This document shows positions 4,211 through 54,528 of a DNA stretch of 55,012 nucleotides, one piece after another. The DNA lies in assembly GCA_964562805.1 (NCBI GenBank), contig CAZLUT010000004.1:1-55012 (forward strand). The letters are read 5' to 3'. Numbering within the stretch: position 1 is the stretch's first letter; every line of letters begins with the position of its first letter. The stretch comes from an uncultured bacterium. GTDB lineage: Bacteria; Omnitrophota; Omnitrophia; Omnitrophales; CAZLUT01. The translations under genes and the position numbers were made by a program. The notes below the pieces were generated by a model. It was not told where the DNA came from. It did not search any database and saw only the letters and a program-made list of their open reading frames with translations.

Positions 4211-4232
4211 AATGATTAAACACGAGGCTCTA

Positions 4233-7905: not shown

Positions 7906-9171
7906 TTAGGCAACCTGAGGTAATAGATCGCCTTTTTCCGCCCATCTTTGGATGGCCGGTAATGTCATAAATTTTTTCCAGATTTTCCCGTCAATAAAAT
8001 TTTCAATCATAAGCACTGTGATTCCCTGATCAATGGCAATATATTCTTTAGAAAACCACTTTTTCCCCAAATTGTAACTGTCAGTGAACCCATAACGGGT
8101 AAAAATTTTATCTTTCATTTGCCACATATTCCGGGTCGCGTCCAAAGATTCTTGTGGTGTAAAAGGTAAAGAGCCGATAGCTCCTGAGGGCGCAATGGTT
8201 CCATCACTTCGGCATTTATTGCCGCAAGGAGGAGCTCCGTAAGCCACGTAACCGGCGGGCCCCAGGCAAGCGGTTAGGCCCCAAGATGTCTTATAACCCG
8301 GGTATTGGTCAGAGCCGGCAAGCGAAAATTCTTTATTCGCAAGACTTGCGTTGATTGAGTTAGTAAAATAATTAATTCCATCATCGTTTAAGCTCCTGAA
8401 ATCAATAAAAGCGTGTGAATATTGGTAAGTAAAAAGAGAGCCCGAAAAGGCATAAACAATTTCTTTACCTTCGTAGTTATCCTTTGTCCTTCTCCACTCT
8501 TTCCAAACTTCTGTGCTGGTGGGATTGCGGCTAGCGCCCAAGGAAAGCGCCTGTAAAATTAAATGCTCACTGTACATATCCCAGTAATGGGGCAGAAACC
8601 CCCGCTCAGGTTTCCAGCCATGACTAATCATGTAACGATTGTTGGTCATCCACTCCCAATCAACGCGCTTATAAATCTGGTTAGCCAATCGCTCAATTTC
8701 AGTATCTTTAAAAACCTGACCCACGTAAAGAGCGCCCGCAATAAAAAGTGCTGTGTCAATCGAGGAAGCTTCAGAAGCCCAGGCTCGTCTGGCTGTTTTA
8801 GGGTTTAAAAAATGGTAAAAGAAACCGTTTTTATGTTCAGCTCTTTTTAAAGCGGTATGGAGGGTTTGCCGGGCTCTTTTGTAGGCCTCACTGTGGCTTA
8901 ACCAGCCGTTTTCTTTGGCAATTCCTAAGCCGGCTAAATAAAAGCCGGTTGCGGCAATTGAGGCGGGCGAGCCTGGCTGGCTGGAGTCTCGAGTAAGACC
9001 TGTTGAGCTGTCTGTAAAATCTAGGAAAAATTGAAAAGAATTGCGGGAAATTTTAGAGAGCATTTTATAGTCTTCGCCCGAAATTTTAAGGGCAAAGCCG
9101 GAAGCAGAAAACGCAAAACAAATAGCCGAAAAAACAATAAAAAGGAAGAGCGAGGTTTTGAGAAACCTCAT
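7906..9171 (-). CDS. Exported glucoamylase-like (DUF3131/GH144-type) glycoside hydrolase
   Basis: Signal peptide; SIAATGF, NGFFYHF, SSIDTALF, GSLFTYQYSH, YGFTDSYN, IDQGI. Confidence 0.78.
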   Translation of the reverse strand: MRFLKTSLFLFIVFSAICFAFSASGFALKISGEDYKMLSKISRNSFQFFLDFTDSSTGLTRDSSQPGSPASIAATGFYLAGLGIAKENGWLSHSEAYKRARQTLHTALKRAEHKNGFFYHFLNPKTARRAWASEASSIDTALFIAGALYVGQVFKDTEIERLANQIYKRVDWEWMTNNRYMISHGWKPERGFLPHYWDMYSEHLILQALSLGASRNPTSTEVWKEWRRTKDNYEGKEIVYAFSGSLFTYQYSHAFIDFRSLNDDGINYFTNSINASLANKEFSLAGSDQYPGYKTSWGLTACLGPAGYVAYGAPPCGNKCRSDGTIAPSGAIGSLPFTPQESLDATRNMWQMKDKIFTRYGFTDSYNLGKKWFSKEYIAIDQGITVLMIENFIDGKIWKKFMTLPAIQRWAEKGDLLPQVA

Positions 9172-9836
9172 TTTGATGTCTTGAATCTGGAAAGAATTTT
9201 TTCCAGCAAACCTTTCGAGTTATCGGGGCCTGTGCTTGCTATTTCAGCAGCTTTGTTCTTGAGGGTTCCGATGTCTTCATCGAGGGAGGTAGCCATTTCA
9301 TTAAAACTTTTCGAAAGCCACTGCGCCTCATCTTTCTTTCTTAAATGAGCGCGAGTCGTGAGATCTCCATTTTTTATTTTCTTAAAGCATTGATCAAATC
9401 GATATAGAGGCCCCGCGATTTTGTGCGACAGAAAAATAGTGCCCCACGCAATAAATACCAGGAGGGGAATCAGATAAATCAAAAGTTTTTGGTTGGTGCG
9501 GTAGAGTATTTCTTGAAAAACTTCCCGCTCTTTTTGGCTTAGGAGCTCAGTTTCTTTAATGAATTTTAGAGCAGCGCCCGATGTTTCATCACCGGTTTCA
9601 ATAGCCCGCGCTTTTTCATATTGGAAAATACGGTTAGCAACGATGAGTTGATTGCGAATCCCCTCGTTGGAAAGCTCTTTTAAAACAGAGCCCCAAATTC
9701 CGAAATACATGCTGGCTAAAGAGGCGCCCATAACTACCAAGAGAATGATTACAATTTGAAACATATAGCGCAATTGAAAAGCGCGATTGATGAAAAAATG
9801 TTTTCGCACGTGCGATTTTTGAGAAGCCTCAGTCAT
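9168..9836 (-). CDS. Two-TM HAMP-domain membrane protein without an output domain
   Basis: HFFINRAFQLRY N-terminus, two TM helices, SHKIAGPLYRF...GDL...LRKKDE...FNEM. Confidence 0.72.
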   Translation of the reverse strand: MTEASQKSHVRKHFFINRAFQLRYMFQIVIILLVVMGASLASMYFGIWGSVLKELSNEGIRNQLIVANRIFQYEKARAIETGDETSGAALKFIKETELLSQKEREVFQEILYRTNQKLLIYLIPLLVFIAWGTIFLSHKIAGPLYRFDQCFKKIKNGDLTTRAHLRKKDEAQWLSKSFNEMATSLDEDIGTLKNKAAEIASTGPDNSKGLLEKILSRFKTSK

Positions 9837-11810: not shown

Positions 11811-11842
11811 TACTAACCACTACCAACTAACTACTAACCACT
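11811..11842. repeat. Degenerate heptamer array (TAACCAC family)
   Basis: tac-TAACCAC-TACCAAC-TAACTAC-TAACCAC directly after the glmS stop. Confidence 0.7.
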
Positions 11843-18288: not shown

Positions 18289-18870
18289 ATGAAAAAAACT
18301 TATGAAGAAATAAAAGCTATTCAGAAGGAAAAATCTAAAAACAAGCACCTTCCTTTAACAGGTGTTCTTGAAAATATTCGCAGCCTCTACAATGTGGGAA
18401 GTATTTTTAGAACGGCTGATGGCGCTGGATTCGAGCAATTGGTTCTGACGGGGTATACGGGGGCACCTCCCAGTAAAGAAATTGAAAAAACAGCTTTGGG
18501 AGCTACTCATTTTATTCCGTGGCATCAGTTTGATTCCCCGCTTGATTATTTAAAGTCTATTAAAAATAACAGCACAATCGTAGCTCTTGAGCATAGTCAT
18601 AAAAGCATTCCTTATACCGAGATTGCTTTACCTCAAAATAAACCTGTTATTTTAGTTGTAGGCAATGAAATTACCGGCATTGAAAATAAAACGCTCGAGT
18701 TTTGTGATATTCACACCGAGATCCCTATGATGGGCCAGAAGCATTCTCTTAATGTTTCGGTAGCGTTCGGCATCCTGGCGTTTCATTTGGCGATGCTGCT
18801 GAAACAGCAAACCACAAACCACAAAACACAAAACACAGACAAAACACAAACCACAAAACACAAACAATGA
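18289..18870 (+). CDS. TrmH/SpoU family RNA methyltransferase
   Basis: LENIRSLYNVGSIFRTAD, VVGNEITGI, EIPMMGQKHSLNVSVA; the tail is a translated repeat. Confidence 0.9.
   Translation: MKKTYEEIKAIQKEKSKNKHLPLTGVLENIRSLYNVGSIFRTADGAGFEQLVLTGYTGAPPSKEIEKTALGATHFIPWHQFDSPLDYLKSIKNNSTIVALEHSHKSIPYTEIALPQNKPVILVVGNEITGIENKTLEFCDIHTEIPMMGQKHSLNVSVAFGILAFHLAMLLKQQTTNHKTQNTDKTQTTKHKQ
18808..18867 (+). repeat. Heptamer array CAAA(C/A)CA read through in the TrmH tail
   Basis: caaacca caaacca caaaaca caaaaca cagacaa aacacaa accacaa aacacaa acaa, encoding QTTNHKTQNTDKTQTTKHKQ. Confidence 0.8.
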
Positions 18871-21100: not shown

Positions 21101-22027
21101 ATGTTAAAGTTGGAAAGACAGAAATTTTTAACAAAAATTTTTATAAGCGTAGTCATTTTTTTATTTAGTTTCACTTCACTTTCTTCCGCCCCCGTTTTGG
21201 CAGCCAGCACAGTTGTTTCCGGTACTATTCAAGAGATTAATTCCATCGGCGGAGGTCAATTTGAATTAATCGTCAAAGATAATTTAGGGGTCAGAAGATT
21301 TGTCGTGGACTCTTCAACCTTAGTCCAAGTAGCGATTCCCGCTGAAGATGTTGAAGTGGGCAATGAAGTCTTGGTTCTTCCCAGGAAAAAAGGGGGAGGA
21401 ATTAAAGAAATGTCATCTTTTAAGAATATACCTGCCCCGATAAGAAAAAAATTGGGTCTGCCCGATCTGCCGGACATTCCTGAAGTGCCTAGGATTCCGG
21501 AAGTGCCAAAAGTACCTAAAATTCCAAAACCTTCTCCCCCGGCACCCAAGGTACCTAAGACACCTAAAATCCCAAAAGCGCCTAAGGCGGGAGGTCCCGA
21601 GACTCCACCATCCGGAGGAGGTCAAGCCCAGCAAAGCTCAGCAGGCGGAGATGTTTCGGCAGCGGCTTCTGAGGAGGAAGGTCAAGCTGAAGGGGAAGAT
21701 ATGGTGGCCAGAGAAGAGCAGCCTGATATTCCCGCCCCACCTCGAGAAGCGGGATCTTCTGTTTTTAAACCGGATGCCTTAAAGGCCCCAACGCCAACCT
21801 TGGAAAAAATTCATGGGAAAAAGGTAGTCCAGGTCAAAAGGGAAAAAGACGGTATTGAAATGGAAATGATTGGGGGTACCGGAGAAAAAGAAAAGGTCGT
21901 TCTTACTCCGGAAGACAAGGTGCTCCAATTTATTGACATCGAATATTTAAAGAAAAACATGACGATTCAGATGGAAGTCGCTTCGTCTCCCGAAGGCAAT
22001 TATGTCCAAAGGGTAACCATCGCTTAA
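21101..22027 (+). CDS. Exported protein with central Pro/Lys-rich xPx repeats
   Basis: Signal peptide; LPDLPDIPEVPRIPEVPKVPKIPKPSPPAPKVPKTPKIPKAPK between two beta-rich segments; SD AAGGGG. Confidence 0.72.
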   Translation: MLKLERQKFLTKIFISVVIFLFSFTSLSSAPVLAASTVVSGTIQEINSIGGGQFELIVKDNLGVRRFVVDSSTLVQVAIPAEDVEVGNEVLVLPRKKGGGIKEMSSFKNIPAPIRKKLGLPDLPDIPEVPRIPEVPKVPKIPKPSPPAPKVPKTPKIPKAPKAGGPETPPSGGGQAQQSSAGGDVSAAASEEEGQAEGEDMVAREEQPDIPAPPREAGSSVFKPDALKAPTPTLEKIHGKKVVQVKREKDGIEMEMIGGTGEKEKVVLTPEDKVLQFIDIEYLKKNMTIQMEVASSPEGNYVQRVTIA

Positions 22028-23099: not shown

Positions 23100-25040
23100 C
23101 TACCTAGTAAGCTGCCTTTCCGCATTTACAATATCACGATTTATTTTTTTAAAAGTGGCGCGTACGTTTTCTTTTAAATTTTCTGAAGTACATTTTGCGT
23201 CCTGGATTTCTCGCAAGAGCTGAGCAACCATTCTGAAATAACGGACAATCTCGCCCTCATCAATACACGATATTTCTTTAACTTGATTGAAATCCTTGCC
23301 GCTCATCCATGTTTCAATGGCAGGCGCCAAATGGAAGTGGGGGATTTTCGAATGCGGCCAAATATGAAATTTATATTCTTTTCGGTATATGTGACGAGCG
23401 GTGCTCTCAAGTGTACGTTCTAATTTGATAGCCCTCTTTGAAATTCGCGGCTTATGATCTTGTTTTCTTGGTTCAAACACTAAAGCACCCAATGTTAGAG
23501 CCAAATCTAAACCATCCATTTCATTTAAATATCCAATATCTTTCAGTTCTGCGAGTAAAAGCTCGTAGCCATAAAGGCTTGAAGCGAATTCTCCTTTTTC
23601 GGTCAATTTGCCTTTATGAATATGATCCAGATTTTCTAAAAGCCGCAGCTTGTCTTCAATTGAGCGGTAACCCTCCCGCTTTTCTTTTTGAGCAGATTGA
23701 AAATAATGAAAGGTGCGCGGATAAATTTTAATCAAATCTCTTCCGTATGATCTGTAAAGGTTTAAGAGCGTGGCATAGGAAGCATTAAATTGACTTTTTA
23801 CCTTTTCGGGGCTCCCTTCAATAATCTTTGTGAATTCCTGAAAAGATATTTGGTGCGGATTAATGCGGCTATAGACGAACCCCTCTTTATCCATTCCACG
23901 CCTACCGGCCCGACCTGCCATTTGGTAAAAGTCGCGAGTTCTTAAATTGGCAAAACGATTTCCATAAAATTTTCTCATTTCATCAAAAATAACAGTACGG
24001 GCAGGCATATTAATGCCAAGCGCAAAGGTCTCTGTCGTAAAAATTAATTTGATGTGCTTGTGAGTAAAAAGCTGTTCAACAACTTCTTTAAGGGCCGGGA
24101 GCATCCCGGCATGGTGATAAGCAATTCCTCGCTCAATGAGAGGGATCATTTCACGAGCAGAATCCTCATTGGATAATTCATAGCGCTCACAAAGCTGATT
24201 AAAATAAGACGTAATTTCAGTTTTCTCTTCCGGGTATAAAAAGTTAAATTTTGAAAGTTCCAAAGCCAGCTCTTCAGTTCTTCGCCTACCAAAACAAAAA
24301 TAAATGACAGGGAGCCTATTCTCTTCTTGCAGGTGACTCACCAAGTGATCAATTCGGTTGGGCTTGGCTCTCAATTGAAAATCGTGGGATCTACGATTTT
24401 TCCAAGAAACCCTCCGCCAACGGGATCTGGATTCATAACCTTCTTTAAAAAGGCGTTTAAAATTTTTAAAAATTTTACCCTGACATTGAAAAGAATGTGT
24501 GAGAGGGACCGGCCTATTTTTTTCGATGATGACGTGCATATTCTCTTCATGAATTGTTTCTATCCAATGGGCGAGCTCTTCAATATTAGGTACCGTAGCA
24601 CTCAAGCCTAAAATTTTGATGGATTTTGGAGTGAACATAAGAGCTTCTTCCCAGACGGTGCCGCGCTCCCAATCATCCAGATAATGGATTTCATCAAAAA
24701 TAATCCAGCGGGATTTTTCAAGGCGTCTAGAGTTTTCAAAAAGACTATTTCGATAAATTTCAGTTGTCATGATTAAAAGGGGAGCGTAGGGATTGATGGA
24801 GACGTCACCTGTAACTATTCCAACTTGGTCATTATATTTCGAGACGAAATCACGGTATTTTTGGTTGCTAAGGGCCTTTATAGGTGAGGTGTAGATGGCA
24901 CCCTCTCCGCGTTCTAAGGCCTTTTCAATTGCGTATTCAGCAATACAGGTTTTCCCCGCACCCGTTGGGGCTGAGACAATAAGGGACTCTTCTCGATCAA
25001 TAATTTCGATAGCTTTCAGCTGAAACGGATCATATTGCAT
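23100..25040 (-). CDS. Ski2/HelY-like DEAD/DEAH box RNA helicase
   Basis: APTGAGKT, SPIKALSNQK, DEIH, LSAT, HHAGMLP, TETFALGINMPA, QMAGRAGRRG. Start taken as ATG 25040, with TATACT 6 nt upstream. Confidence 0.9.
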   Translation of the reverse strand: MQYDPFQLKAIEIIDREESLIVSAPTGAGKTCIAEYAIEKALERGEGAIYTSPIKALSNQKYRDFVSKYNDQVGIVTGDVSINPYAPLLIMTTEIYRNSLFENSRRLEKSRWIIFDEIHYLDDWERGTVWEEALMFTPKSIKILGLSATVPNIEELAHWIETIHEENMHVIIEKNRPVPLTHSFQCQGKIFKNFKRLFKEGYESRSRWRRVSWKNRRSHDFQLRAKPNRIDHLVSHLQEENRLPVIYFCFGRRRTEELALELSKFNFLYPEEKTEITSYFNQLCERYELSNEDSAREMIPLIERGIAYHHAGMLPALKEVVEQLFTHKHIKLIFTTETFALGINMPARTVIFDEMRKFYGNRFANLRTRDFYQMAGRAGRRGMDKEGFVYSRINPHQISFQEFTKIIEGSPEKVKSQFNASYATLLNLYRSYGRDLIKIYPRTFHYFQSAQKEKREGYRSIEDKLRLLENLDHIHKGKLTEKGEFASSLYGYELLLAELKDIGYLNEMDGLDLALTLGALVFEPRKQDHKPRISKRAIKLERTLESTARHIYRKEYKFHIWPHSKIPHFHLAPAIETWMSGKDFNQVKEISCIDEGEIVRYFRMVAQLLREIQDAKCTSENLKENVRATFKKINRDIVNAERQLTR

Positions 25041-25065
25041 GGCGCTAGTATACACTAGGGGAGGG

Positions 25066-25084
25066 ATAAGATCTAAGATCTAAG
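25066..25084. repeat. AGATCTY heptamer array
   Basis: ATAAGATCTAAGATCTAAG (minus strand CTTAGATCTTAGATCTTAT). Confidence 0.7.
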
Positions 25085-25151
25085 GGCGGAGAATAAAGTG
25101 GTAAAGTGGGACAGTCCCCTACAACAATCTAGGAGGGGAGTTTTTATAGTT

Positions 25152-25334: not shown

Positions 25335-28300
25335 ATGAGTGTCTTTAATTGGATTAAAAGACCGGTAAGTTTAATCACGGTTGTCTGCTTTCTTATGACG
25401 ACGGTTCTTTTTAGTTATCCATCCAATTCCTATGCTGCAGTCCAGCCGACGTTAGTTCATGAAGATGAGGAAGAGGCCAAAGAATATGTCCAAAGATTGG
25501 CTGAAACGATTGAAGATGAAGGTAAAGATCTTCCGGCTGTTCACTTGCATAGGGAATTAGAAAAGCTTGAGCCTAAAGTCCCCGTTGCTACAGCCGCGAG
25601 TTTGGGTAAGGAGAGCAACCCTTTCCGAATCTTATCAAGCGATATTGGCCGAGAATTAGTAGTGCAATGGGTTAAAAGCTATCCAAATGAAGGTCGCGAG
25701 GAGAATTATAATGCAATATCAGAGGTAATTGAGTTTCTTAGCAATCCTAAAAATACGCAAGGCGATTTTGTTTCTCGAGCGATCCAGCGGTTTCCCATTA
25801 TTAATAATTTACATCAAAGATTTAAAGACGCATTGCAAAAACCAACCATTGAACTTCCTGCTTGTGTTGAAAAAGAAGCTGTATTAAGGGAATTTATTCA
25901 AGGTCCTACTTTTATTAACATCGGAGCTGGCCTTGATCTATTGGGAGAGCGGAGTGTTAAAGTGAATTCGAAAGTTAGCCAAGCTATTGGTATTGATATC
26001 GAAGAACAAAGAAAAACTCCTTACCCGCCTGGTGTTAGTTTTAAGCGAATGACAGATCCATCGGTGATGCCTCTCGGCAATAACGTAGCAGACACAGCCG
26101 CAATGACTTTTGTGCTGCATCATGTGGATGTAGACCGGAAAAAATATTTAGAAGAAGTGAAGCGTATTATTCGTCCTGGAGGCAGGTTGGTTGTTTTGGA
26201 AGACACCTTTAGCCACGAGTTGCCGGTTGAGTATGTAGATGAGGTGTCAAAAGCTAAAAGCCAGAAAATTTCAGAATCTTTTTCAGAATTAAAGAATGAC
26301 GAAGAACGCCTGAGCTTTTTGCATTTTATAGATTGGTTTACTCACAATTTTGTGAACCGCTCAAGAGCACCGCTCGTTCCCGGCAATTACGAACCCATGG
26401 AAGTTTGGAAATCTATATTTGAAGAGGCAGGGTTCAAAGTTATTCATCAACAATATCTTGGTTTTTCTGCGATGGGATCACGCAATCCTGCCAGCAGAGG
26501 GCTTTTTGTTTTGGAAAAGCCGAATACCGAATACCGAATACCGGGCATTGGAATTTCCGGTGCGAGTTTGGGAGATGAGGAGCGCGACCTCTCTCAAAAG
26601 AAAAGAGTTAGAAAGATAACGCTAGCGACAGCCGCGGCCTTACTGGCAGCCGCAGTTGCTGCAGTGATTACTATCTATTATTGGGCGGCTCCTAAATATG
26701 CTGTTTTTCCGGACGATGGGAAAGTGCCGAGTGCCGTATCTATGCACCGCGGACCGTTTCTCACCGTTGGAGAATTTGAACCAGGTTTTTTTCGTTCTCC
26801 TCAATGGACAAAACAGTACCTTCGCCGCCTCACTGGACACGCAGCTTCTTCTACGGATCCTATTTTCCTTGCGCGAGGGGGAAAAAACATTTTAATTCTG
26901 GATATGAAAAAAGGACACCTTAACCGCAGCGATCTCCTATCTAATAACTTTTTAACTGATATGGACAGGCAGGGCGTCATGAGACCTCCTAAAGTTGATA
27001 TAGTTGAGACCAACAAAGGGGAGCCAGCGGATGAAGAACCCCTGGAAATTAGCGCAGTTATTGACGGTATTCGCGCCGGTGAAGTGATCGCTCTTCCTCA
27101 CACCTTTAACTCAATGGTAGAGAGGGTCACCTCTGATAAACCGGATGCCTTCGAGCGTAAAGGGAATAACCTTATTATAAAAAGAACCCTTGAGCCGGGT
27201 GAGACATTGCAGCTTCGTTGGGCGCTCCGCCGCTTTACCGAAAATAATGAGTTGTCCTATACGCCTCAACCGGTCCCGCCCCGTCAGCTTACGACCCTTC
27301 CGAAAGTTTTTATTGATGAACTTGATAAAGCACGAGGGAAAGGTGATGAGGCTAAGCTTTGGCATATTGCTGAGGCTATACATAATAATTTCGAATATGG
27401 CTTAATCCCTTTTAGCCGCAAGGGAAGAGAGACATGGGGCGAGGCCGCCACGCGCGTTCTAAAAAAAGAAAAGAAGATTGTTTGCGATTGCGACGTTCTA
27501 GCACAGTATGCTTGGCTTTTTGCCCGCTATCTCAATATGGATGATGCAGCCATAGCGTTGGGGTTTGTCAATCTAGATAATGACCGCAACATCAGCATAG
27601 AAGAAGGACACGCTATATTTCTCGTACGGGCAACCATCAAGGGCAAGACGCAGTGGTATGCGTTGGATGTTACCGGTTCGGAATGGGTCGGTGTTGCTGA
27701 TATAGAATGGGAGCGACGAGAAAGGTTGCTTAGATGGGCGGCACTGTATGGAAAATCTGGTCGTATAAGAATCGATTCTTTCCCGCGAAGAGAACAGATG
27801 CACAGGAGCAAGCATGCTGTTGATGAGGTCGATGAGCTCGAAGAGGCTATCAGAAATGGAGATGTGACCTTGTCAGAAAAGGATATTTTTAAATTCATCG
27901 AACAGCTTAAGGGGTGGGAGAATCACTATCGGGCACACAAAATATTGCGTGCGGTCGGGAGGCCGGCGGTTATACCGCTCCTTAAAACACTTGAGACTTC
28001 AGATGACTATTCTCAAAGGGGTTCAATAATCAGGGTGCTGACCGGTATGGAAGACTTTAGGGATTCTAAGGCAATCAATTTGTGTATAAGTATGCTTGGA
28101 AGCAAAGAGTATGATGTCCGCGGAGGAGCTGCACAATTTTTAGCCCGATTCGGTGAGGCAGTTCATGGTCGAGTGCTTCAAATTGCTATGCGAGGAACAA
28201 GAGGGGAAAATTCCCTGAATCAACGCAAAGGCGCTCTTGAGGCTCTTGGTTATTTGAAGGGCGCAAGATCAGTTGATGTTTTGATTGAGGCGTTGGCTAT

Positions 28301-30026
28301 AGAGAGGTTGAACAACCAGGCAATGTTGTCATTGGTCAAGGTCGGCAAAGAGGCTGCCCCCGCTCTTATCAAAGCGCTCGACCGTGAAAATATAGAGATC
28401 CAAATCGGTGCGCTGTATGCCTTGGGGAAGCTTAAGGATGAGCGAGCGATCGGTCCGATTATGAAGGCGCTTGATCATAAAAATTTAAAAGTTCGACAAG
28501 CCGCAATACGAGCTTTGGTAGATCAAAGGGGTGAGCAGGCGATCGAAACAATTTTAAGCAATTTAGACAGATTCAAGGGCCGGGATCTGGATACGACTCT
28601 GTTTCGTAGTGGTTTCAAAGAAGAATTTGAAGAAAAATTAGCGGAACGATTGCTCAAGATTGTACTAGGAGAAGCTGGCAACGAAAAAGACTACAAGTTG
28701 CGCATTGTCGCCTTCGAGGCATTACAATGGGACTTTAAAACGGACAGACAAGTAATGGAAAAGCTGATAGACCTGTTTCGCAAACAGCTTCCTCAAGATA
28801 AGCTCAACCTCGATCGACAATCGGATGTTTTGTGGATAGAAATAGTCAATTTTTTCTCGTACTTGCGGGATAACAAATCGCAAGACAAAATAAAAAATTT
28901 GTTACTGCAGACGCTACAGACACACAAAAATCAGGATGTAAGAAAGAGGGTGATCGGCGCTCTTATGAATTGGGAGGGTGTCCTGAAAGAAGAAATTCAG
29001 CGGAATAAAAACCCCGAAATTCTTAAGGAAGCCTTAAAACGTTGGCCGGATCGGAATTGGAACTTCAACGCTGATAAGGAGCACCATAATATTAGGTCGT
29101 GGCTTATGGTGTGGGATGAAACAGAGCCGGAAACTGTGATGGAAATCGCCAAACAATATGCAGATTACCCTCCTTATGGAGATAGGGAGCGGGTAAAAAT
29201 ACGAAAGGCGCTTGCGGGAGTTATAGATAGAGAGGATTTGAGTCCAGTCCAAAAAAGATCCCTTAATGAATATCTTAAAACTTTCGATGAAAAAGTCACC
29301 CGAGAACAAAAAGAGGAAGAACAGCGCCGAGAACAATGGGAAAAAATCCGGGAAGAAGAAAAGAAAAAGGTTATTACGACGCCACCAATAGAGTTAAAAA
29401 AAACCGTTCCAATATTACTCGAGAAAGAGCTTGAAGAAGGTAAGAAAACTACGCCAAAAAAGGAAGTAGTTCCTGAAGAGGATGCTAAAGGTGCGAGTTT
29501 GGGCAAGGAAGAGGAATATGACAAAATCTACGAAACTCTCACCAACCTCACTAAACCCGTTAACGTCTTTATGAGTTATAAGGACTATAAAGCTCTGTCT
29601 CAAGATCAAAGGGAAGAGCTCTTTGCCCTAGCCACTCTTAACCCTAAGAAACTAAAAGTAGTTATCTATGGGGCAGAGTCATATGAAAAACGAGGTGATA
29701 ATATCTTTATCACAACCGATGAAGCTCGAGTCTCACTTAACCTAGTGCCTAAACTTGATAACAATATCCAACTTTCAAAAATAGATGAGAAGGTAATGGA
29801 GGACTTAGCTGCTCTTAAAGATAAGACCGCCTTCTTTAGATATCAGGATGACTCCAAAGGTCTTCTTGGCGTAGCCCTTCTATTGTCTCAAGCCGCTGAT
29901 AAAAAACTCTTTGCTGAAAAGTACGGTCTTGAAGAGCGTGACGGTTTCTTTATCGCTGTCTCTGAATTTCTGCACAGCCTTGTCCAAGAATTTGAAGCCC
30001 AGCTAGTTATTAAAATAGCCGCTTAA
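25335..30026 (+). CDS. Large exported modular protein: signal peptide / class I SAM methyltransferase / TM + transglutaminase-like + HEAT repeats / C-terminal domain ending IAA
   Basis: Signal-like N-terminus; NIGAG and VLHHV...EVKRIIRPGGRLVVLE; CDCD...GHA...WYALD; HEAT/PBS-lyase repeats (ALYALGKLKDERAIGPIMKAL); three ASLG junctions; SD AGAGG. Confidence 0.8.
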   Translation: MSVFNWIKRPVSLITVVCFLMTTVLFSYPSNSYAAVQPTLVHEDEEEAKEYVQRLAETIEDEGKDLPAVHLHRELEKLEPKVPVATAASLGKESNPFRILSSDIGRELVVQWVKSYPNEGREENYNAISEVIEFLSNPKNTQGDFVSRAIQRFPIINNLHQRFKDALQKPTIELPACVEKEAVLREFIQGPTFINIGAGLDLLGERSVKVNSKVSQAIGIDIEEQRKTPYPPGVSFKRMTDPSVMPLGNNVADTAAMTFVLHHVDVDRKKYLEEVKRIIRPGGRLVVLEDTFSHELPVEYVDEVSKAKSQKISESFSELKNDEERLSFLHFIDWFTHNFVNRSRAPLVPGNYEPMEVWKSIFEEAGFKVIHQQYLGFSAMGSRNPASRGLFVLEKPNTEYRIPGIGISGASLGDEERDLSQKKRVRKITLATAAALLAAAVAAVITIYYWAAPKYAVFPDDGKVPSAVSMHRGPFLTVGEFEPGFFRSPQWTKQYLRRLTGHAASSTDPIFLARGGKNILILDMKKGHLNRSDLLSNNFLTDMDRQGVMRPPKVDIVETNKGEPADEEPLEISAVIDGIRAGEVIALPHTFNSMVERVTSDKPDAFERKGNNLIIKRTLEPGETLQLRWALRRFTENNELSYTPQPVPPRQLTTLPKVFIDELDKARGKGDEAKLWHIAEAIHNNFEYGLIPFSRKGRETWGEAATRVLKKEKKIVCDCDVLAQYAWLFARYLNMDDAAIALGFVNLDNDRNISIEEGHAIFLVRATIKGKTQWYALDVTGSEWVGVADIEWERRERLLRWAALYGKSGRIRIDSFPRREQMHRSKHAVDEVDELEEAIRNGDVTLSEKDIFKFIEQLKGWENHYRAHKILRAVGRPAVIPLLKTLETSDDYSQRGSIIRVLTGMEDFRDSKAINLCISMLGSKEYDVRGGAAQFLARFGEAVHGRVLQIAMRGTRGENSLNQRKGALEALGYLKGARSVDVLIEALAIERLNNQAMLSLVKVGKEAAPALIKALDRENIEIQIGALYALGKLKDERAIGPIMKALDHKNLKVRQAAIRALVDQRGEQAIETILSNLDRFKGRDLDTTLFRSGFKEEFEEKLAERLLKIVLGEAGNEKDYKLRIVAFEALQWDFKTDRQVMEKLIDLFRKQLPQDKLNLDRQSDVLWIEIVNFFSYLRDNKSQDKIKNLLLQTLQTHKNQDVRKRVIGALMNWEGVLKEEIQRNKNPEILKEALKRWPDRNWNFNADKEHHNIRSWLMVWDETEPETVMEIAKQYADYPPYGDRERVKIRKALAGVIDREDLSPVQKRSLNEYLKTFDEKVTREQKEEEQRREQWEKIREEEKKKVITTPPIELKKTVPILLEKELEEGKKTTPKKEVVPEEDAKGASLGKEEEYDKIYETLTNLTKPVNVFMSYKDYKALSQDQREELFALATLNPKKLKVVIYGAESYEKRGDNIFITTDEARVSLNLVPKLDNNIQLSKIDEKVMEDLAALKDKTAFFRYQDDSKGLLGVALLLSQAADKKLFAEKYGLEERDGFFIAVSEFLHSLVQEFEAQLVIKIAA
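25596..25606 (+). repeat. Module junction 1 (GCGAGTTTGGG, ASLG)
   Basis: In frame at aa 88; identical to junctions 2 and 3. Confidence 0.8.
26520..26543 (+). repeat. Intragenic heptamer repeat (CCGAATA)x3 + CCG
   Basis: Three exact units (21 nt, frame-preserving), ending 15 nt before junction 2. Confidence 0.85.
26559..26572 (+). repeat. Module junction 2 (GGTGCGAGTTTGGG, GASLG)
   Basis: ASLG at aa 410; 14-bp identity with junction 3. Confidence 0.8.
29490..29503 (+). repeat. Module junction 3 (GGTGCGAGTTTGGG, GASLG)
   Basis: ASLG at aa 1387; followed by AAGGA as in junction 1. Confidence 0.8.
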
Positions 30027-30033
30027 TCCCCCG

Positions 30034-30055
30034 CAGATCTTAGATCTCAGATCTT
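30034..30055. repeat. AGATCTY heptamer array
   Basis: CAGATCTTAGATCTCAGATCTT, just after the giant gene stop. Confidence 0.8.
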
Positions 30056-30087
30056 GGTTCTAATGTCTTTCTATGCTATCTTAGGCC

Positions 30088-31671
30088 ATGCTAAGCCAAG
30101 AAAATTTTGCGGTCATTGACCTTGAAACGACAGGACCGATCTCCGAAGAAAACTATGTAATTGATATCGGGATTGTGCGCGTTGAGAAGGGGAAAATTAC
30201 TCAAACCTATTCTAGTTTAGTAAAGCCGCCCATACCTATACCGCCTTCCATTACCCATTTAACAGGCATTCGAGACGAGGATGTGAAAACGGCGCCTCGA
30301 TTTAAAGATATCATCAAAGAAATTGAGCCTTTCTTTGAAAATGCTATTTTTACGGCCCACAATGCGGCATTTGACTATGGTTATTTGAGCCTTGAATACC
30401 TCAGAATGGGAAGACGTTTTATAAAACCGGTGCTTTGTACGAAAAATTTAGCGCATGTTGCTTTGCCTGAGCTTCCCAAATTAGGCCTTGATGCTTTAAT
30501 GGAGCACTTCGGGATTACAGCGGACCAGAGACATCGAGCTTTTCCAGATGCGGATATAACAGCCCGCGTTCTTTTAAAATTATTAAAAAATAAAAATATT
30601 TCCCAAATGATACAAAACGTTCTTATCAAGAAAGAAGATAATCCTATTCAAATTCCTGAAAAGCTGCTTTTTGAAACTTTGCCGACTAAAGCGGGTGTTT
30701 ATCAATTTTTAGACGTGAAGGGCAATGTTTTATACATCGGCTCAGCTGATAATGTGCGCTCATCCGCTCTGATCCATTTTGTTGCTCAAATGGAAAATAA
30801 AAAGGAAAGAGAGCTTTGTAAGCGGACAAAAAAGATTCAGGCCTCGTCACACTCTAATGAATTGGAGGCAAGGATCGCCGAGGCTCTCCAAATTCGTGAA
30901 TTAAAACCTAAATATAATCGTTTATTAAAGAATTGGTATCCAGGCGCCTATCTTTGGGTGAGTACTGAGGAATTCCCCCAGCTTTTAATAGAAGACGAAC
31001 CGACCAAGGATGCAGGCTTCGATTGTCACGGTCCTTATGATTCAAGACGTCTTGTTGAAAAGTTAGTTGAATTTGCCGCGGGAAATTTTCATTTATGCGA
31101 TTTTAGGATAGGACGTCTCAGAAAGATGAGACGTTATCCGGGAAGAAAATCCTGCCTCGGCATTCGCGTTAAAAGGTGTCTGGGAGCTTGTTTAGGCAAG
31201 GTGCCCTCAAAAACTTATCAGGAGAGTGTTAAGGAGGCTATCCAATTTTTAAGAACCCCTCTGGGGAGTTCTTTTTTGGAAGATGAAGCTTTTGTAAAGG
31301 TTTTAAATAACCGCAAGACAGAAAAAATAACCGGCGGATGGAAATCCCGCCGTCTTCTCAAAAGACTTTTGAAGGCAAGCGCAGGGGTTCCGGCTTCGCA
31401 CAAGAAACCTTTTCTTTTGGAAGAAATCGGAGCTGATGGCAATAAAACTATTTTTTTAATTTCAAAGGGGCTGCTTATTAAAAGCTGGCTAGTTGATTCT
31501 GAAGTGACGGATGAGGCTCTTAGAGAGGATGTTCTAGAGGCGCTAAAAATACGCCCTCCAAAGAAAGATGCAAGGTCTGAAGCTCTTGAAAGGCTAGCGG
31601 TTGGTCATTATGTTGCCGCTCCAAAAGCTTATCGGCGAATTATTAAACTTAATCTTCTTGCTAGCCGGTAA
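30088..31671 (+). CDS. DnaQ-like DEDDh exonuclease fused to a GIY-YIG (UvrC/Cho-like) domain
   Basis: IDLETTG, AHNAAFD, HRAFPDA; GVYQFLD...VLYIGSA...LKPKYN; TGcTATCTT ends 5 nt before the ATG. Confidence 0.85.
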   Translation: MLSQENFAVIDLETTGPISEENYVIDIGIVRVEKGKITQTYSSLVKPPIPIPPSITHLTGIRDEDVKTAPRFKDIIKEIEPFFENAIFTAHNAAFDYGYLSLEYLRMGRRFIKPVLCTKNLAHVALPELPKLGLDALMEHFGITADQRHRAFPDADITARVLLKLLKNKNISQMIQNVLIKKEDNPIQIPEKLLFETLPTKAGVYQFLDVKGNVLYIGSADNVRSSALIHFVAQMENKKERELCKRTKKIQASSHSNELEARIAEALQIRELKPKYNRLLKNWYPGAYLWVSTEEFPQLLIEDEPTKDAGFDCHGPYDSRRLVEKLVEFAAGNFHLCDFRIGRLRKMRRYPGRKSCLGIRVKRCLGACLGKVPSKTYQESVKEAIQFLRTPLGSSFLEDEAFVKVLNNRKTEKITGGWKSRRLLKRLLKASAGVPASHKKPFLLEEIGADGNKTIFLISKGLLIKSWLVDSEVTDEALREDVLEALKIRPPKKDARSEALERLAVGHYVAAPKAYRRIIKLNLLASR

Positions 31672-34929: not shown

Positions 34930-36588
34930 TTAATGTTCGATACTTATAACGTGAAAAGAAGGCTTCACTTTAAAAATTAATTGGAGAGGTCTACTTTTTT
35001 TATTATTGGTAATCGCGGATATTTCCAATTGGGCCTCTTCGGTATTTATTGGGGGTAAAATGATGACCGATGTTTCGGAAGAGCCCTCCGCAATAGGTTT
35101 CTTTTTGTTTTCTTCAAGCGCGTAAAGTTTATATTCATAAGTTCGATTAGGCGCCCAACCTTTTTGGACCATCAAATCATCAAAACTGATTTGAACCCCT
35201 CCATTACTAGCTGTGATATAGAAGTTCTCAAGCGGAGTTACTTTATCGAACCAATATTGAACAACCATATCCCGTCTTTCAATTAATGTATTAATTAAAT
35301 AATCCTCAGCTGTTTTACTGGAAAGTTTGCCGGTTTTAACAACAGCTTCAATATCTTCATCAGTGAATTTGGAAATAATTTTAGCGGCCCAATAAGCGTC
35401 CGCATCAGTTAAATATCCAAAAGTGGTATGAGGTAAATTTGATTTCCAGTGCCCAGGATCAAATTGATCATTATCAAAATAGCCAATGCTGGGATACCGG
35501 ATGGTGTGCTGATCATCATCCCATCTGATTTCCCAAGGTTTTTGCTTAACCTTTAGGAGGCCGATAGCTCTTAAAATTGCCTTATAATCGATTAAATTTT
35601 CAAACCCTACCGCCGGCACTTTAGCCCTGTAGCCTGAGCTGCCCAGAGAAGATCCAAAATCAAGAAGGTAATGTTTGATTTTTTGTTTTCCCTCTTCTTC
35701 AACAAGCACATCCATTGTATTTTTTCGGTGGAGGTCATAATTATTGGTCCAAGATCCAAAAACCCGAAGAGCTCTTAACGCGCGCAATTGATCATGGGGA
35801 ATCAAGTCATCCAGTTCACCTGCTTTCCTCTGATCATAATCAAAGTATCCCAAGAGGGGACCTTTAAGTATTCGGCTAGCTGAGGCCCGGTACATGCCGC
35901 CTTTAAAAATAGGCACATGCATTTTGAGCATTTCAAGAGCCTTATCTTTCGTAAGAGGCTGTTCAAAGCCTTCATCATTGTAATAGGTGGCATCTGAGGC
36001 AACTTCTAAAATATCAGGATGAAATTTGACGAGCACGTAAGAAGGAACGTTATAGCCAAAAGCGTAAAAGAGTTTATGAGTAATAACTTCAGAACTTGTG
36101 GTCATCTCAGGATTTGAGCGAGGATCAAATTTAAGCAAGAACTTATCACCGTTCGCGTCTTTAATAAAAAAGCCGGGAGTTACTCCATCGCTTTTACCTT
36201 TCAAAATAATCCAAGGACCATTTTGACTGGGTCCTGAATCGGGCTGATTAAGGGGAGCGCTTACTAGTTTTTCCAGGGAAAGTCTTTTTTTGCCCTGACG
36301 ATTTGTAAAGAAATTATTATCCAGCACCTCATCGTAGATATTAACATCGAGAGCGGGAGGCTTCGTGAAGGTGACGGTTCTGAAAAAATTAATAGGATCC
36401 AAAAGTCCCAATGAAGGTTCGTAGAGCTGTTTTTTCCAGAAAGTAGAATAAAAAGAAGTATCTTTTCTGCCGAATGATACTAAATCTTCTTTTGCCGAGT
36501 AACTCTCGCCTGAGCCGCTATCCGCAAACACACACGCCGGCACCACCATAATCATTATCGCCACTGCTGTTATTAATATTTTCTTCAT
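34930..36588 (-). CDS. Exported protein with atypical kinase-like motifs
   Basis: Signal peptide; KGKSDGVTPG, LLKFD, EMTTSSEV, WTNNYDLHRKN, YLLDFGSSLG. Confidence 0.6.
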   Translation of the reverse strand: MKKILITAVAIMIMVVPACVFADSGSGESYSAKEDLVSFGRKDTSFYSTFWKKQLYEPSLGLLDPINFFRTVTFTKPPALDVNIYDEVLDNNFFTNRQGKKRLSLEKLVSAPLNQPDSGPSQNGPWIILKGKSDGVTPGFFIKDANGDKFLLKFDPRSNPEMTTSSEVITHKLFYAFGYNVPSYVLVKFHPDILEVASDATYYNDEGFEQPLTKDKALEMLKMHVPIFKGGMYRASASRILKGPLLGYFDYDQRKAGELDDLIPHDQLRALRALRVFGSWTNNYDLHRKNTMDVLVEEEGKQKIKHYLLDFGSSLGSSGYRAKVPAVGFENLIDYKAILRAIGLLKVKQKPWEIRWDDDQHTIRYPSIGYFDNDQFDPGHWKSNLPHTTFGYLTDADAYWAAKIISKFTDEDIEAVVKTGKLSSKTAEDYLINTLIERRDMVVQYWFDKVTPLENFYITASNGGVQISFDDLMVQKGWAPNRTYEYKLYALEENKKKPIAEGSSETSVIILPPINTEEAQLEISAITNNKKSRPLQLIFKVKPSFHVISIEH

Positions 36589-36601: not shown

Positions 36602-36630
36602 TAACCACTAACCACTATTAACTAACCACT
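36602..36630. repeat. TAACCAC heptamer array overlapping the Omp85 stop
   Basis: TAACCAC TAACCAC TATTAAC TAACCAC T. Confidence 0.75.
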
Positions 36631-37972
36631 AAAACGGTGTCTTCGTCCTAACGTAAAATTCTGTCCCTTCGTTACTCTTTGCTAGCTGAAAGCTGAGAAT
36701 AACCCGCCGCTCAGTTTTAATTCGAATCCCTGTCCCATAAGAGACCCTCATTCCGCCGATACCAAATTCGTGCAGATCACCAAAAACCTTTCCAATATCG
36801 GTAAAAAAGATCCAATCAGCTCCGATATTGCCGTATTGCCATACGTTATATCGATATTCTGCGTTTAAGACAGCGCTTGATTTATCAAAAAAACGATTAT
36901 ATTTATAACCTCTTAAAGTAGTGCTTCCCCTCGGTTGAGTTCCATAACCGCCGAGCCTCGCCATGTCGAAAAAGGGAATGCTGGAATGATTAACTGTTTT
37001 AGTGTGTTCGCCGGTAAAGTGAAGTGCCAAAATACGTCTTTCAGACCAAAGTTTAAAATATTGGCTCAACTCCAAATGATATTTGAAATAATTATCATTG
37101 TGGCGCATATCTCGATTAAAGTCTAAAGTGAAACGCTGCAAGCCGCCTGATTTAGGGTCGTCGGGAACGTCTCTTGTGTCATGTTCAATAAAAGATTTAA
37201 GGGTAATGATTTGCCCGCCATCAACGCCCGGAAGCTCACCAATTGAAAAATTTTCAAAATTGCCGGCACCTCTAACATCCCCGTTGTTAATCGTTACATG
37301 GCGGTATATAAAGGATGTGCCCACATCTACTGTTTTCAAGGGACGGAAGCCTGCGCTTGCCTCAAGCAGAGTGGTGTTGATTTCGTAGCTATATCCATCA
37401 CCCCGGCTAGTGCGGGGACCCAAGCCATAAAAATTTTCATTTTCCTTGTGGGTAAAATCAAAAATTCCCTTATGGTAAAGCCGCCAGCCTGAGCTTTGAA
37501 AAAGCTCATACGAGGCTCCCACATCGGCATCACCCCTAAAAGTTGCGCCACCCGTTCCATGAAGCCTCAGAAAAGGAAAGCGTTCTTCCAGATTCAACAG
37601 TTTTTCAAACCGAATTGTGCTTCCTGCCCCTATGCCAAAAGCACGAGGGGAAAAGCGGGTTTCGGGGAAAATGCCATTTTCATGAAGCACATCTTCCCAA
37701 AACCATTTAATTTTTCTTTTTAAATAAGTTCTTTCGGCCCAATTTAGAATTTTTTCTGTTCCATATGAAAGGCCCCTAAAAGGGAGAGAAGGTAAATTAA
37801 GAATGCTTCGAATTTGATCCTGTTTTTTAAGCGCCTCAATATCTTGAGATTCCGGATAACGAGGTTCTTTACTATAAGGATCGTAACTGAGCTTCGCTTG
37901 GCCCCCCGAAGGAAACAGAAAACTTGCTGCGATAGGAAGAATTATAAGAAAAAATAATTTAATTCTTTTCAT
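36629..37972 (-). CDS. Omp85/BamA-TamA family outer-membrane beta-barrel with no clear POTRA domains
   Basis: LRGYKYNRF, NAEYR, FTDIGKVF, SYGTGIRI, terminal TPF. Start taken as ATG 37972 (MKRIKLFF). Confidence 0.8.
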   Translation of the reverse strand: MKRIKLFFLIILPIAASFLFPSGGQAKLSYDPYSKEPRYPESQDIEALKKQDQIRSILNLPSLPFRGLSYGTEKILNWAERTYLKRKIKWFWEDVLHENGIFPETRFSPRAFGIGAGSTIRFEKLLNLEERFPFLRLHGTGGATFRGDADVGASYELFQSSGWRLYHKGIFDFTHKENENFYGLGPRTSRGDGYSYEINTTLLEASAGFRPLKTVDVGTSFIYRHVTINNGDVRGAGNFENFSIGELPGVDGGQIITLKSFIEHDTRDVPDDPKSGGLQRFTLDFNRDMRHNDNYFKYHLELSQYFKLWSERRILALHFTGEHTKTVNHSSIPFFDMARLGGYGTQPRGSTTLRGYKYNRFFDKSSAVLNAEYRYNVWQYGNIGADWIFFTDIGKVFGDLHEFGIGGMRVSYGTGIRIKTERRVILSFQLAKSNEGTEFYVRTKTPF

Positions 37973-38109
37973 ATGTGGAGCCGAGTGTAGCATAGCCCAG
38001 TCCGAGGGACAATAGCCGCATAAAGAGTTTTTAATTAAAAATAATTTTTTTGTTTTGTAAAGTCCGTAAATTACCGATAATTACTCATTAAAGAGGAGAT
38101 TTGTAAAAA

Positions 38110-40648: not shown

Positions 40649-40660
40649 TATCCCTTCGTT

Positions 40661-40698
40661 CTTAGATCTCAGATCTCAGATCTCAGATCTCAGATCTT
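40661..40698. repeat. AGATCTY heptamer array, 5 units
   Basis: CTT(AGATCTC)4 AGATCTT. Confidence 0.9.
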
Positions 40699-40880: not shown

Positions 40881-41168
40881 ATGTTTGAGAAATTGTCACT
40901 TAATGAAGCACGGCATGTTCTTTCGGATTTTTTTGAGATCCATACAGATGTTTCTCAGAAAAGCGCCTTAGTTCGTGCGATTCAAATCTTAGATGAAATT
41001 GACTCCGAGGCTAAAGATCAGATTTCTTTAGGAGCGATTCCAGCGATTAGGATAGGAGACAATCTCGTTTCTTTTTTGCCGGAAAACTGTGATCCCGAAA
41101 ATATCTATCTTTTAAGCAAAGAAGCTGAGCGCAGAGGTTATACGAAGAAAATCGCAGTGGGAAAATAG
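40881..41168 (+). CDS. Hypothetical protein (95 aa)
   Basis: SD GAGGAGG; no recognised motif. Confidence 0.65.
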   Translation: MFEKLSLNEARHVLSDFFEIHTDVSQKSALVRAIQILDEIDSEAKDQISLGAIPAIRIGDNLVSFLPENCDPENIYLLSKEAERRGYTKKIAVGK

Positions 41169-41238
41169 TGGTTAGTGGTTAGTGGTTAGTGAATAGTGAC
41201 TAATTGCTAGCCACTATTCACTATTAACTATTAACTAG
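41166..41238. repeat. Mirrored heptamer arrays forming a hairpin between convergent genes
   Basis: (TAGTGGT)3 TAGTGAA TAGTGAC ... CTAGCCA CTATTCA CTATTAA CTATTAA CTAG; perfect arms TAGTGAATAGTG / CACTATTCACTA. Confidence 0.8.
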
Positions 41239-42363: not shown

Positions 42364-42396
42364 AATCTCAGATCTCAGATCTCAGATCTTAGATCT
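42364..42396. repeat. AGATCTY heptamer array
   Basis: AATCTC AGATCTC AGATCTC AGATCTT AGATCT, between divergent fbaA and purU. Confidence 0.85.
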
Positions 42397-54503: not shown

Positions 54504-54528
54504 CCTCAGCTCTCAGATCTCAGATCTT
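54504..54528. repeat. AGATCTY heptamer array
   Basis: CTCAGCTCTCAGATCTCAGATCTT. Confidence 0.8.

Follow-up and report, generated by a model that had tools for sequence, protein, structure and literature searches.

A recurrent x-Ser-Leu-Gly junction separates unrelated modules in a family of Omnitrophota-type modular proteins and is a candidate processing site

A 55,012-nucleotide (nt) stretch of DNA from an uncultured bacterium (contig CAZLUT010000004.1), hereafter the window, encodes a 1563-aa modular protein in which one 11-mer, GCGAGTTTGGG, recurs three times in frame and specifies the tetrapeptide ASLG each time. This motif is the core of a family-wide inter-module junction in Omnitrophota-type modular proteins with constant bookends. 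Family members consist of an N-terminal leader, a variable number of modules that are each followed by the junction, and a conserved C-terminal domain ending in AA-COOH. We infer, at about even chances, that the junction is a protease-recognition linker from which the modules are released; besides being a probable cutting site, it is possibly also a place where modules are swapped. The window protein is organized as follows (P numbers designate proteins, L numbers loci).

25335..30026, + strand: open reading frame (ORF) of the leader / x-SLG / C-terminal-domain family, 1563 aa (coordinates include the stop), with a GAGGA ribosome-binding site 5 nt before the ATG
25335..25607, + strand: N-terminal leader, aa 1-91, homologous to the N-termini of P0003, P0049, and P0098
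25596..25606, + strand: junction 1 (J1), GCGAGTTTGGG = ASLG, aa 88-91
25608..26561, + strand: module 2, aa 92-409, class I S-adenosylmethionine (SAM)-methyltransferase-like by Pfam, AlphaFold, and homology
26520..26543, + strand: heptamer tandem repeat CCGAATA (3.4 copies) in the coding linker, 19 nt 5' of J2
26559..26572, + strand: junction 2 (J2), GGTGCGAGTTTGGG = GASLG, aa 409-413, with the 11-mer GCGAGTTTGGG starting at 26562
26574..29489, + strand: module 3, aa 414-1385, composed of a transmembrane (TM) helix, a Cys-containing core, HEAT repeats, and a tail
29490..29503, + strand: junction 3 (J3), GGTGCGAGTTTGGG = GASLG, aa 1386-1390, with the 11-mer GCGAGTTTGGG starting at 29493
29505..30023, + strand: C-terminal domain, aa 1391-1563, alpha/beta, ending ...KIAA, by homology and AlphaFold

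Scanning of both strands yields exactly three copies of the 11-mer in the window, all on the plus strand and in the frame of ORF 25335..30026, at the positions given by a first-pass annotation made from the letters alone (25596, 26562, and 29493). The expected count is 0.02, and three copies were reached in 0 of 100 shuffles. J2 and J3 share the 14 identical nucleotides that the annotation had listed, and pairwise likeness continues beyond the core, over 27 nt at 85% for J1/J3 and over 24 nt at 83% for J2/J3. Among the real ORFs of the window, the peptide ASLG is confined to this one. A post-hoc control counted as comparable any 11-mer with at least 6 G/C and three copies in one frame within 5 kb, and found one in 1 of 400 second-order Markov windows. 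The codons used are minority codons in the window background (GCG 0.20, AGT 0.13-0.17, TTG 0.19-0.22); once the amino acids are fixed, three sites would agree in their A, S, and L codons with p ~1.3e-4, in line with the claim that the shared codons go beyond the demands of the peptide. Coincidence or base composition as the origin of the repeat could appeal to the many A/T-rich 11-mers that have at least three copies in the window. This explanation is refuted by the expected count, by the simulated windows, and by 17 further in-frame copies of GCGAGTTTGGG in related genes of other samples. As a separate observation, many of the repeated A-rich 11-mers derive from a 174-nt tandem repeat at 5069-5389 (1.8 copies, 83% identity), which lies in ORF 4212-6542 and encodes a Lys/Glu/Arg-rich segment of a TPR-containing protein.

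Relatives of the window protein were obtained by an exhaustive HMMER protein search and range from 211 to 6219 aa. Word-index searches with the whole protein, a HEAT-less concatenate, or a C-terminal-domain profile retrieved only the protein itself or two fragments, and a whole-protein search of genome contigs gave no match. An 18-sequence alignment of the C-terminal domain was too diverse as a query for contigs; the narrower alignment used instead matched, among genome contigs, only the metagenome-assembled genome (MAG) OFTM55. At least 21 cluster representatives of 211-5036 aa carry a match to the last ~175 aa at their extreme C-terminus, and the leader matches the N-termini of three proteins. 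In P0003 (5036 aa, L001), a leader and a C-terminal domain (72% aa identity) homologous to those of the window protein enclose a completely different cargo, which bears out the annotation's idea of conserved N- and C-terminal frames. Throughout the family, the C-terminal domain always directly follows an x-SLG and always ends in AA.

The junction bounds homology units between paralogs, and the same sequence stands between unrelated modules. The homology segments of the leader, the methyltransferase, and the C-terminal domain each start or stop at ASLG, as anticipated when the junctions were first placed between unrelated parts. At the DNA level, homology from J3 into the C-terminal domain of L001 (81% nt) begins exactly at the AGT of the junction (29496), and leader homology with L001 reaches ~140 nt upstream of the start codon. 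Enrichment of the motif in relatives and its alignment with domain boundaries, which the annotation had named as a check, are both found: x-S-L-G junctions lie at module borders and number 3-13 per family protein versus ~1 expected. The modules of the relatives include WD40, LRR, HAD, inositol phosphatase, and kinase-like domains. All relatives with a taxonomic label belong to Candidatus Omnitrophota, namely MAG OFTM55 (L006-L009) and P0062 (MBI4972144.1, Omnitrophota/Omnitrophica). One 2.17-Mb contig holds at least six family paralogs, some of them in tandem.

Conservation of the junction extends to its codons. In 13 family genes, the junction Ser is AGY at 58 of 65 sites (background 0.37, p = 3e-18), and AGT makes up 53 of these 58; Leu is TTG at 36/65 (background 0.20), Lys at position -1 is AAG at 16/19, and Ala at this position is GCG at 12/21. 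The window's sublineage comprises five genes from five samples (window, L001, L002, L011, and L012), in which AGT is found at 33/36 (p = 2e-20), TTG at 28/36 (p = 1e-11), and GCG at 20/25 sites (p = 6e-9). The exact 11-mer occupies 19 of the 36 sublineage junctions, in five genes and between unrelated modules. The window and 12 loci together hold 20 copies of the 11-mer, every one of them in a family gene and on its coding strand. Within the C-terminal domain, the invariant Ser columns use TCN, and their third base is free. Because AGY and TCN are not interconvertible by one synonymous step, the Ser codon class at the junctions is frozen, which suggests that the junctions are copies of one ancestral linker rather than convergent inventions.

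Likeness between individual junctions can be considerably longer than the core. Exact runs of 17-29 nt are common to junctions in unrelated contexts and genomes, and J1 matches one unrelated junction of the L001 gene exactly over 20 nt (GCTACAGCCGCGAGTTTGGG). The 15.5-kb gene of L011 contains GGCGCGAGTTTGGG eight times. Recent duplication is ruled out as the source of DNA identity in this gene, since its protein has no self-similarity and its DNA self-matches are weak and short. In L011, the third base of Gly(-2) is C at 11/11 junctions, while only the third base of the last Gly, Gly(+2), is free. Genes of the OFTM55-type lineage, which is more distant, use TTA roughly as often as TTG and leave the third base of Gly free. 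Synonymous positions, whose free variation in other copies would have spoken against the annotation's reading, are largely kept in the window's sublineage, but the Gly third base is not in the OFTM55-type lineage. That junction codons are special even relative to orthologous sites was upheld only partly: where a positionally homologous junction precedes the C-terminal domain, Leu and Gly show roughly the same third-base variation as the other invariant residues of the domain.

The peptide is constrained over a longer stretch than the DNA core. The logo of 65 junctions reads [AVIS]-[DEST]-[AG]-[AKQNS]-S-L-G-x-[ED]-[ED], with A or G at position -2 in 63 of 65 cases; position -4, position -2, and the acidic residues at +2 to +4 are conserved, and their codons vary. 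Variation at the junctions is synonymous. One L001 junction, GGA AAG TCG CTT GGT, keeps KSLG with the DNA motif gone, and SLG is still encoded at junctions that retain only 3 of 9 bases. Judged from these sequences, selection acts mainly on the peptide [AVIS]-x-[AG]-x-S-L-G-x-acidic rather than on the DNA. Since the primary constraint lies on this longer peptide, a proteolytic site is a better primary reading than a recombination site.

Other lineages with AA-ending proteins use the junction peptide RSE[LVIM]R instead. P0006 (L010, 8001-22199) contains a methyltransferase module homologous to that of the window with RSELR on both sides; its 13 RSE[LM]R motifs have freely varying codons (one gene examined) and are often followed by Met. 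No enrichment of Met is seen just after x-SLG junctions. P0084 and P0069 each end in AA with a C-terminal domain that resembles the window's by eye and follows their own junction type. The giant protein P0042 repeats KDGG ten times, a double-glycine-type motif; no C-terminal domain was seen in it. Within a lineage the junction peptide stays the same whatever module it borders, and between lineages it changes, which is the pattern expected of a site with a co-evolving trans-acting reader.

Starts that resemble a signal or a TM segment follow directly after 5 of 96 junctions versus 1.2% of control positions, which suggests that modules need their own N-termini; two of the five have lipoboxes (LVSC and LSGC). 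Canonical lipoprotein signal peptides lie in the middle of proteins of 1.5-3 kaa right after x-SLG in P0039 (aa 528-552), P0059 (aa 679-709), and P0113 (~aa 961), with the lipoboxes LVSC, LSGC, and FASC.

Module order differs between family members. For 38-43% of the internal ends of BLASTP high-scoring segment pairs (HSPs), a junction lies no more than 15 aa away, versus 8% for random placement, and only 4 of 65 HSPs between family proteins cross a junction. Motif-bounded modules recur in other paralogs at different ordinal positions; module 2 of P0039 and module 1 of P0059, for instance, are 47% identical over 634 aa, with a junction closing the match on either side. These sequence comparisons fit a cassette-like assembly, and the same pattern would also arise from selection against breaks within domains.

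In the window protein itself, the leader starts with a signal-peptide-like segment (aa 1-34, ...SNSYA|AVQP, judged by eye), continues into an acidic stretch, and closes with ASLG. Pfam matches the methyltransferase at aa ~214-372, and methyltransferase-homologous modules are internal segments of other giant proteins. An AlphaFold model of aa 60-470 (mean predicted local distance difference test score, pLDDT, 82) places the folded methyltransferase core at aa 93-399 and a long helix, the TM segment, after J2. As pLDDT drops below 50 over aa 60-92 and aa 400-413, J1 and J2 lie in predicted disordered linkers, again in keeping with their position between separate parts. Within the linker before J2, gain or loss of a single CCGAATA copy would cause a frameshift and truncate the protein behind the methyltransferase module; the repeat may be left over from DNA that was once intergenic, or it may act as a phase-variation switch.

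Module 3 begins with KKRVRK and a TM helix (aa ~428-450) that resembles an N-terminal signal anchor. The unassigned Cys-containing core behind the helix has P0126 as its sole relative and is followed by HEAT repeats (Pfam, aa ~867-1078) and a Lys/Glu-rich tail. The GC content at third codon positions (GC3) of this module, 0.44-0.45, deviates from that of the other modules (0.35-0.37) and of housekeeping genes (0.38 ± 0.02), so that the comparison of per-module composition proposed earlier reveals a deviant module. Of the module labels assigned at first sight, methyltransferase and HEAT are supported by Pfam, while transglutaminase for module 3 finds support neither in Pfam (E up to 10) nor in a PDB sequence search. 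Pfam and NCBIfam scans of the whole protein give methyltransferase and HEAT-type matches only and no glycine-rich RTX repeats. The C-terminal domain is modelled with high confidence (pLDDT 88, predicted TM-score 0.86), and the GASL tail in front of it is disordered (pLDDT <50). This domain has no sequence match in Pfam, NCBIfam, or PDB, and its fold has no match in PDB or BFVD, where the best hits are generic Rossmann-like structures (TM-score ~0.3-0.4, E >=0.003); as modelled, it is a predicted novel fold.

Taken as a protease-recognition linker, the junction would be cut by a sequence-specific endoprotease at or beside S-L-G, and the modules would be freed as separate proteins. The signal anchor or lipoprotein signal that some modules carry at their own N-terminus, right after a junction, would fit such a release. 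Leader and C-terminal domain would be constant bookends that might serve targeting, quality control, or processing. The DNA identity would stem from the copying of all junctions from one ancestral linker, which would have spread as modules were shuffled; the likeness of the junction copies is probably maintained by ectopic recombination among them, and this would in turn ease in-frame module exchange.

Several observations weigh against this reading. No protease domain was recognized in the window protein or in the four relatives P0030, P0059, P0113, and P0048, and the C-terminal domain has no known fold and lacks conserved Cys or His. No gene was seen to be conserved in the neighbourhood, and the signal-like starts counted as enriched number five. 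HSP ends at linkers are expected in any multidomain family because breaks within domains are counter-selected, and the near-identical cluster members P0160 and P0163 are truncated copies of the same architecture, so that no population-level module variation was detected in them. A stretch of 11-14 nt is short for homologous recombination, and homogenization by recombination is a proposal. Finally, the synonymous-site conservation in the window's sublineage is unexplained by a site that acts purely at the peptide level.

Because this conservation across five genomes is otherwise hard to explain, recombination at the motif is a plausible second role of the junction. That the 11-14-nt core is primarily a DNA recombination or insertion site, either an att-like site translated in frame or a target-site duplication of cassette capture, we consider improbable. 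Whole genes would then have been inserted between the constant frames of leader and C-terminal domain, with peptide conservation largely as a by-product. Such a site would explain the strong synonymous-site conservation in five genes from different samples and genomes, the coding-strand confinement of the 20 exact 11-mers, the 14-mer that occurs eight times in L011 with its uniform Gly(-2) and free Gly(+2) third bases, and the exact matches of 17-29 nt between junctions of different contexts. It is also consistent with post-junction modules that give the impression of former whole genes, signal peptide included, with the deviant GC3 of module 3, and with the heptamer repeat in the linker before J2, a kind of repeat otherwise seen in the intergenic DNA of the window. 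However, the core has neither dyad symmetry nor a common secondary structure, and no integrase or transposase family occurs among the window ORFs of at least 150 aa, as the annotation had noted for recombinases, or among the called genes listed for related loci. Moreover, the purely synonymous variation is the signature of selection on a peptide and not on each base: SLG persists where 3 of 9 bases remain, the flanking residues are conserved with variable codons, the RSELR codons of P0006 are free, and in the OFTM55 type TTA rivals TTG and the third base of Gly is free. In its most far-reaching form, GG[CT]GCGAGTTTGGG would be a translated in-frame recombination site by which Omnitrophota capture and shuffle whole genes, building polyprotein genes between a constant promoter-plus-leader and the C-terminal domain, an integron at the level of protein modules in which x-SLG doubles as a processing site; we judge this to be distinctly unlikely. 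The two roles that the annotation had offered for the motif therefore fare differently. A recombination site persists as the plausible second role, set against the primacy of the peptide constraint, the missing recombinase, and the lack of a rearranged variant; modules do change ordinal position between paralogs, but near-identical variants are fixed. The proteolytic site becomes the preferred primary reading on account of the peptide-level constraint, with no protease domain recognized.

The junction could instead remain uncut in one multidomain chain, either as a docking or recognition element bound by a chaperone, by secretion or sorting machinery, or by an enzyme that modifies the Ser, or simply as a favoured flexible hinge. 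This appears rather unlikely, although the motif sits in disordered linkers, no protease was found in the five proteins inspected, the leader and C-terminal domain recall secreted multidomain proteins in which a signal is paired with a sorting domain, and papers on long Omnitrophota proteins (10.1101/2023.11.21.568195; 10.64898/2026.06.07.730766) contain no evidence of cleavage. A plain hinge needs no lineage-specific motif of at least seven residues that is replaced wholesale by RSExR or KDGG, and internal lipoprotein or signal-anchor sequences right after junctions make little sense in an uncut chain, in which the N-terminal signal would conflict in topology with the positive-inside TM helix after J2. 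Far less probable still is translational recoding, be it a -1 frameshift with termination at module borders or 2A-like skipping of a peptide bond. AGU UUG GGN contains U_UUG_GGN, which fits the slippery pattern X_XXY_YYZ and is present at 3/3 window and 47/80 family junctions. A frameshift would account for AGT over AGC, for TTG over TTA/CTN, and for the free last base, and the three window junctions meet a stop in the -1 frame after 0, 1, and 5 codons (UUU GGG UAA; UUU GGG AGA UGA; ...). Across the family, however, -1 stops are no nearer to junctions than to random positions (median 6 versus 7 codons, p = 0.47), a common stimulatory structure is absent (RNA fold z-scores of -2.9, -2.5, and 0.05 at the three junctions, with differing folds), TTA or CTN junctions are common in the OFTM55-type lineage, and the conserved upstream GG[CT] GCG and flanking residues stay unexplained. 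Heptamers with Y = G are poor shifters, and to our knowledge 2A does not work on bacterial ribosomes.

Several known systems share parts of this layout. In polymorphic toxins, a peptide and its DNA mark the border between a constant part and exchangeable cassettes, as the VENN motif of CdiA and PxxxxDPxGL of Rhs do, and these motifs are thought to serve both processing and recombination. The junction likewise marks module borders by a short conserved peptide and its DNA, but there are many junctions per protein, the C-terminus is conserved rather than variable, the modules are not recognizable toxins, and a DnaQ/GIY-YIG gene takes the downstream place of an immunity gene. Viral polyproteins consist of one ORF in which unrelated units are separated by a recurrent lineage-specific cleavage consensus; the family likewise has a recurrent consensus between functional units that differs by lineage, but it has no recognized encoded protease and, in the window, resides in a housekeeping neighbourhood of a cellular chromosome. 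Integron gene cassettes and shufflons carry a repeated short DNA core at every cassette border, as do the modules here. In contrast to these, the core is translated and in frame, has no attC-like palindrome and no integrase nearby, and varies according to the genetic code.

The cysteine protease domain (CPD) of MARTX and clostridial toxins cuts small-Leu-small sites in unstructured segments between effectors (PMC2900308). MARTX and large clostridial toxins resemble the family in that conserved N- and C-terminal regions enclose variable, unrelated modules joined by unstructured linkers with a short site, and S-L-G of the window, known here from sequence, fits the small-Leu-small consensus in predicted disordered linkers. 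Unlike MARTX, the window protein has no RTX repeats, and neither this protein nor P0030, P0059, P0113, or P0048 has a C80 domain. Furthermore, the family has a Sec-like N-terminus instead of a C-terminal type I secretion system (T1SS) signal, its linker motif is longer and conserved as DNA, its hosts are environmental uncultivated bacteria, and its cleavage is a proposal. Closer in phylogeny are the multi-enzyme proteins of Omnitrophota, of at least 10,000 aa, for which post-translational cleavage is suspected (10.1101/2023.11.21.568195; 10.64898/2026.06.07.730766). In these, unrelated enzyme, repeat, and HEAT modules tile one chain, and methyltransferases are among the commonest domains (same two studies); the cleavage points are described as unknown, which blocks module-wise structure prediction (10.1101/2023.11.21.568195). 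The labelled relatives belong to the same phylum, and several unrelated domains (methyltransferase, TM plus core, HEAT repeats, C-terminal domain) tile the window protein, although at 1563 aa it is far shorter. In a limited search, neither of the two most relevant papers on Omnitrophota giant proteins was found to report a junction motif, a common leader, or a common C-terminal domain.

The window is otherwise ordinary chromosome, with genes for GOGAT, GlgA, GalE, MetH, and rhamnose. The gene 3' of the ORF, 61 nt downstream at 30088-31671 (+), encodes a DnaQ-type exonuclease with a GIY-YIG domain. Sublineage genes adjoin genes of DNA metabolism, which may be coincidence: a divergent Hel308-like helicase lies upstream in the window (23100-25055, -), RecQ downstream in L011 (15991-17853), and DprA upstream in L001 (8239-9138). 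Two heptamer repeats of an intergenic class flank the ORF; they are given as context and have no demonstrated link to the junctions.

25067..25086, no strand assigned: AGATCT-based heptamer repeat upstream of the gene
30030..30057, no strand assigned: AGATCT-based heptamer repeat of the same class, directly after the stop codon

The two arrays form an inverted pair of 89-94% identity, 4.9 kb apart; AGATCT is palindromic, and such arrays lie between genes. One site of this type is present in L001 and none in the other loci checked. Tandem repeats with a period of 7 nt abound in the window (AGATCTN/TCTCAGA, ACTAACC/TAACCAC, CAAACCA, TAGTGGT, ACTATTA) and also occur at 40660-40697, 42365-42396, 54505-54527, 11812-11842, 36602-36632, 18808-18865, 41166-41199, and 41213-41237. 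Rfam gives no match in the window. ORFs without a Pfam match at E <=1e-6 are 34930-36588 (-, 552 aa), 36629-37993 (-, 454 aa), 9168-9836 (-, 222 aa), and 21101-22027 (+, 308 aa).

Omnitrophota encode some of the longest proteins known, and whether these act as a single chain or are cut is a standing question. The family-wide junction peptide with its lineage variants would provide the first candidate processing points for these proteins, a rule for splitting modules in silico, and a starting point in the search for the protease. New markers of these modular proteins are the conserved leader and the C-terminal domain, whose fold matches none known. Moreover, synonymous-site conservation across genomes points to a mechanism for in-frame exchange of whole modules, which, if confirmed, would be a new way of building genes.

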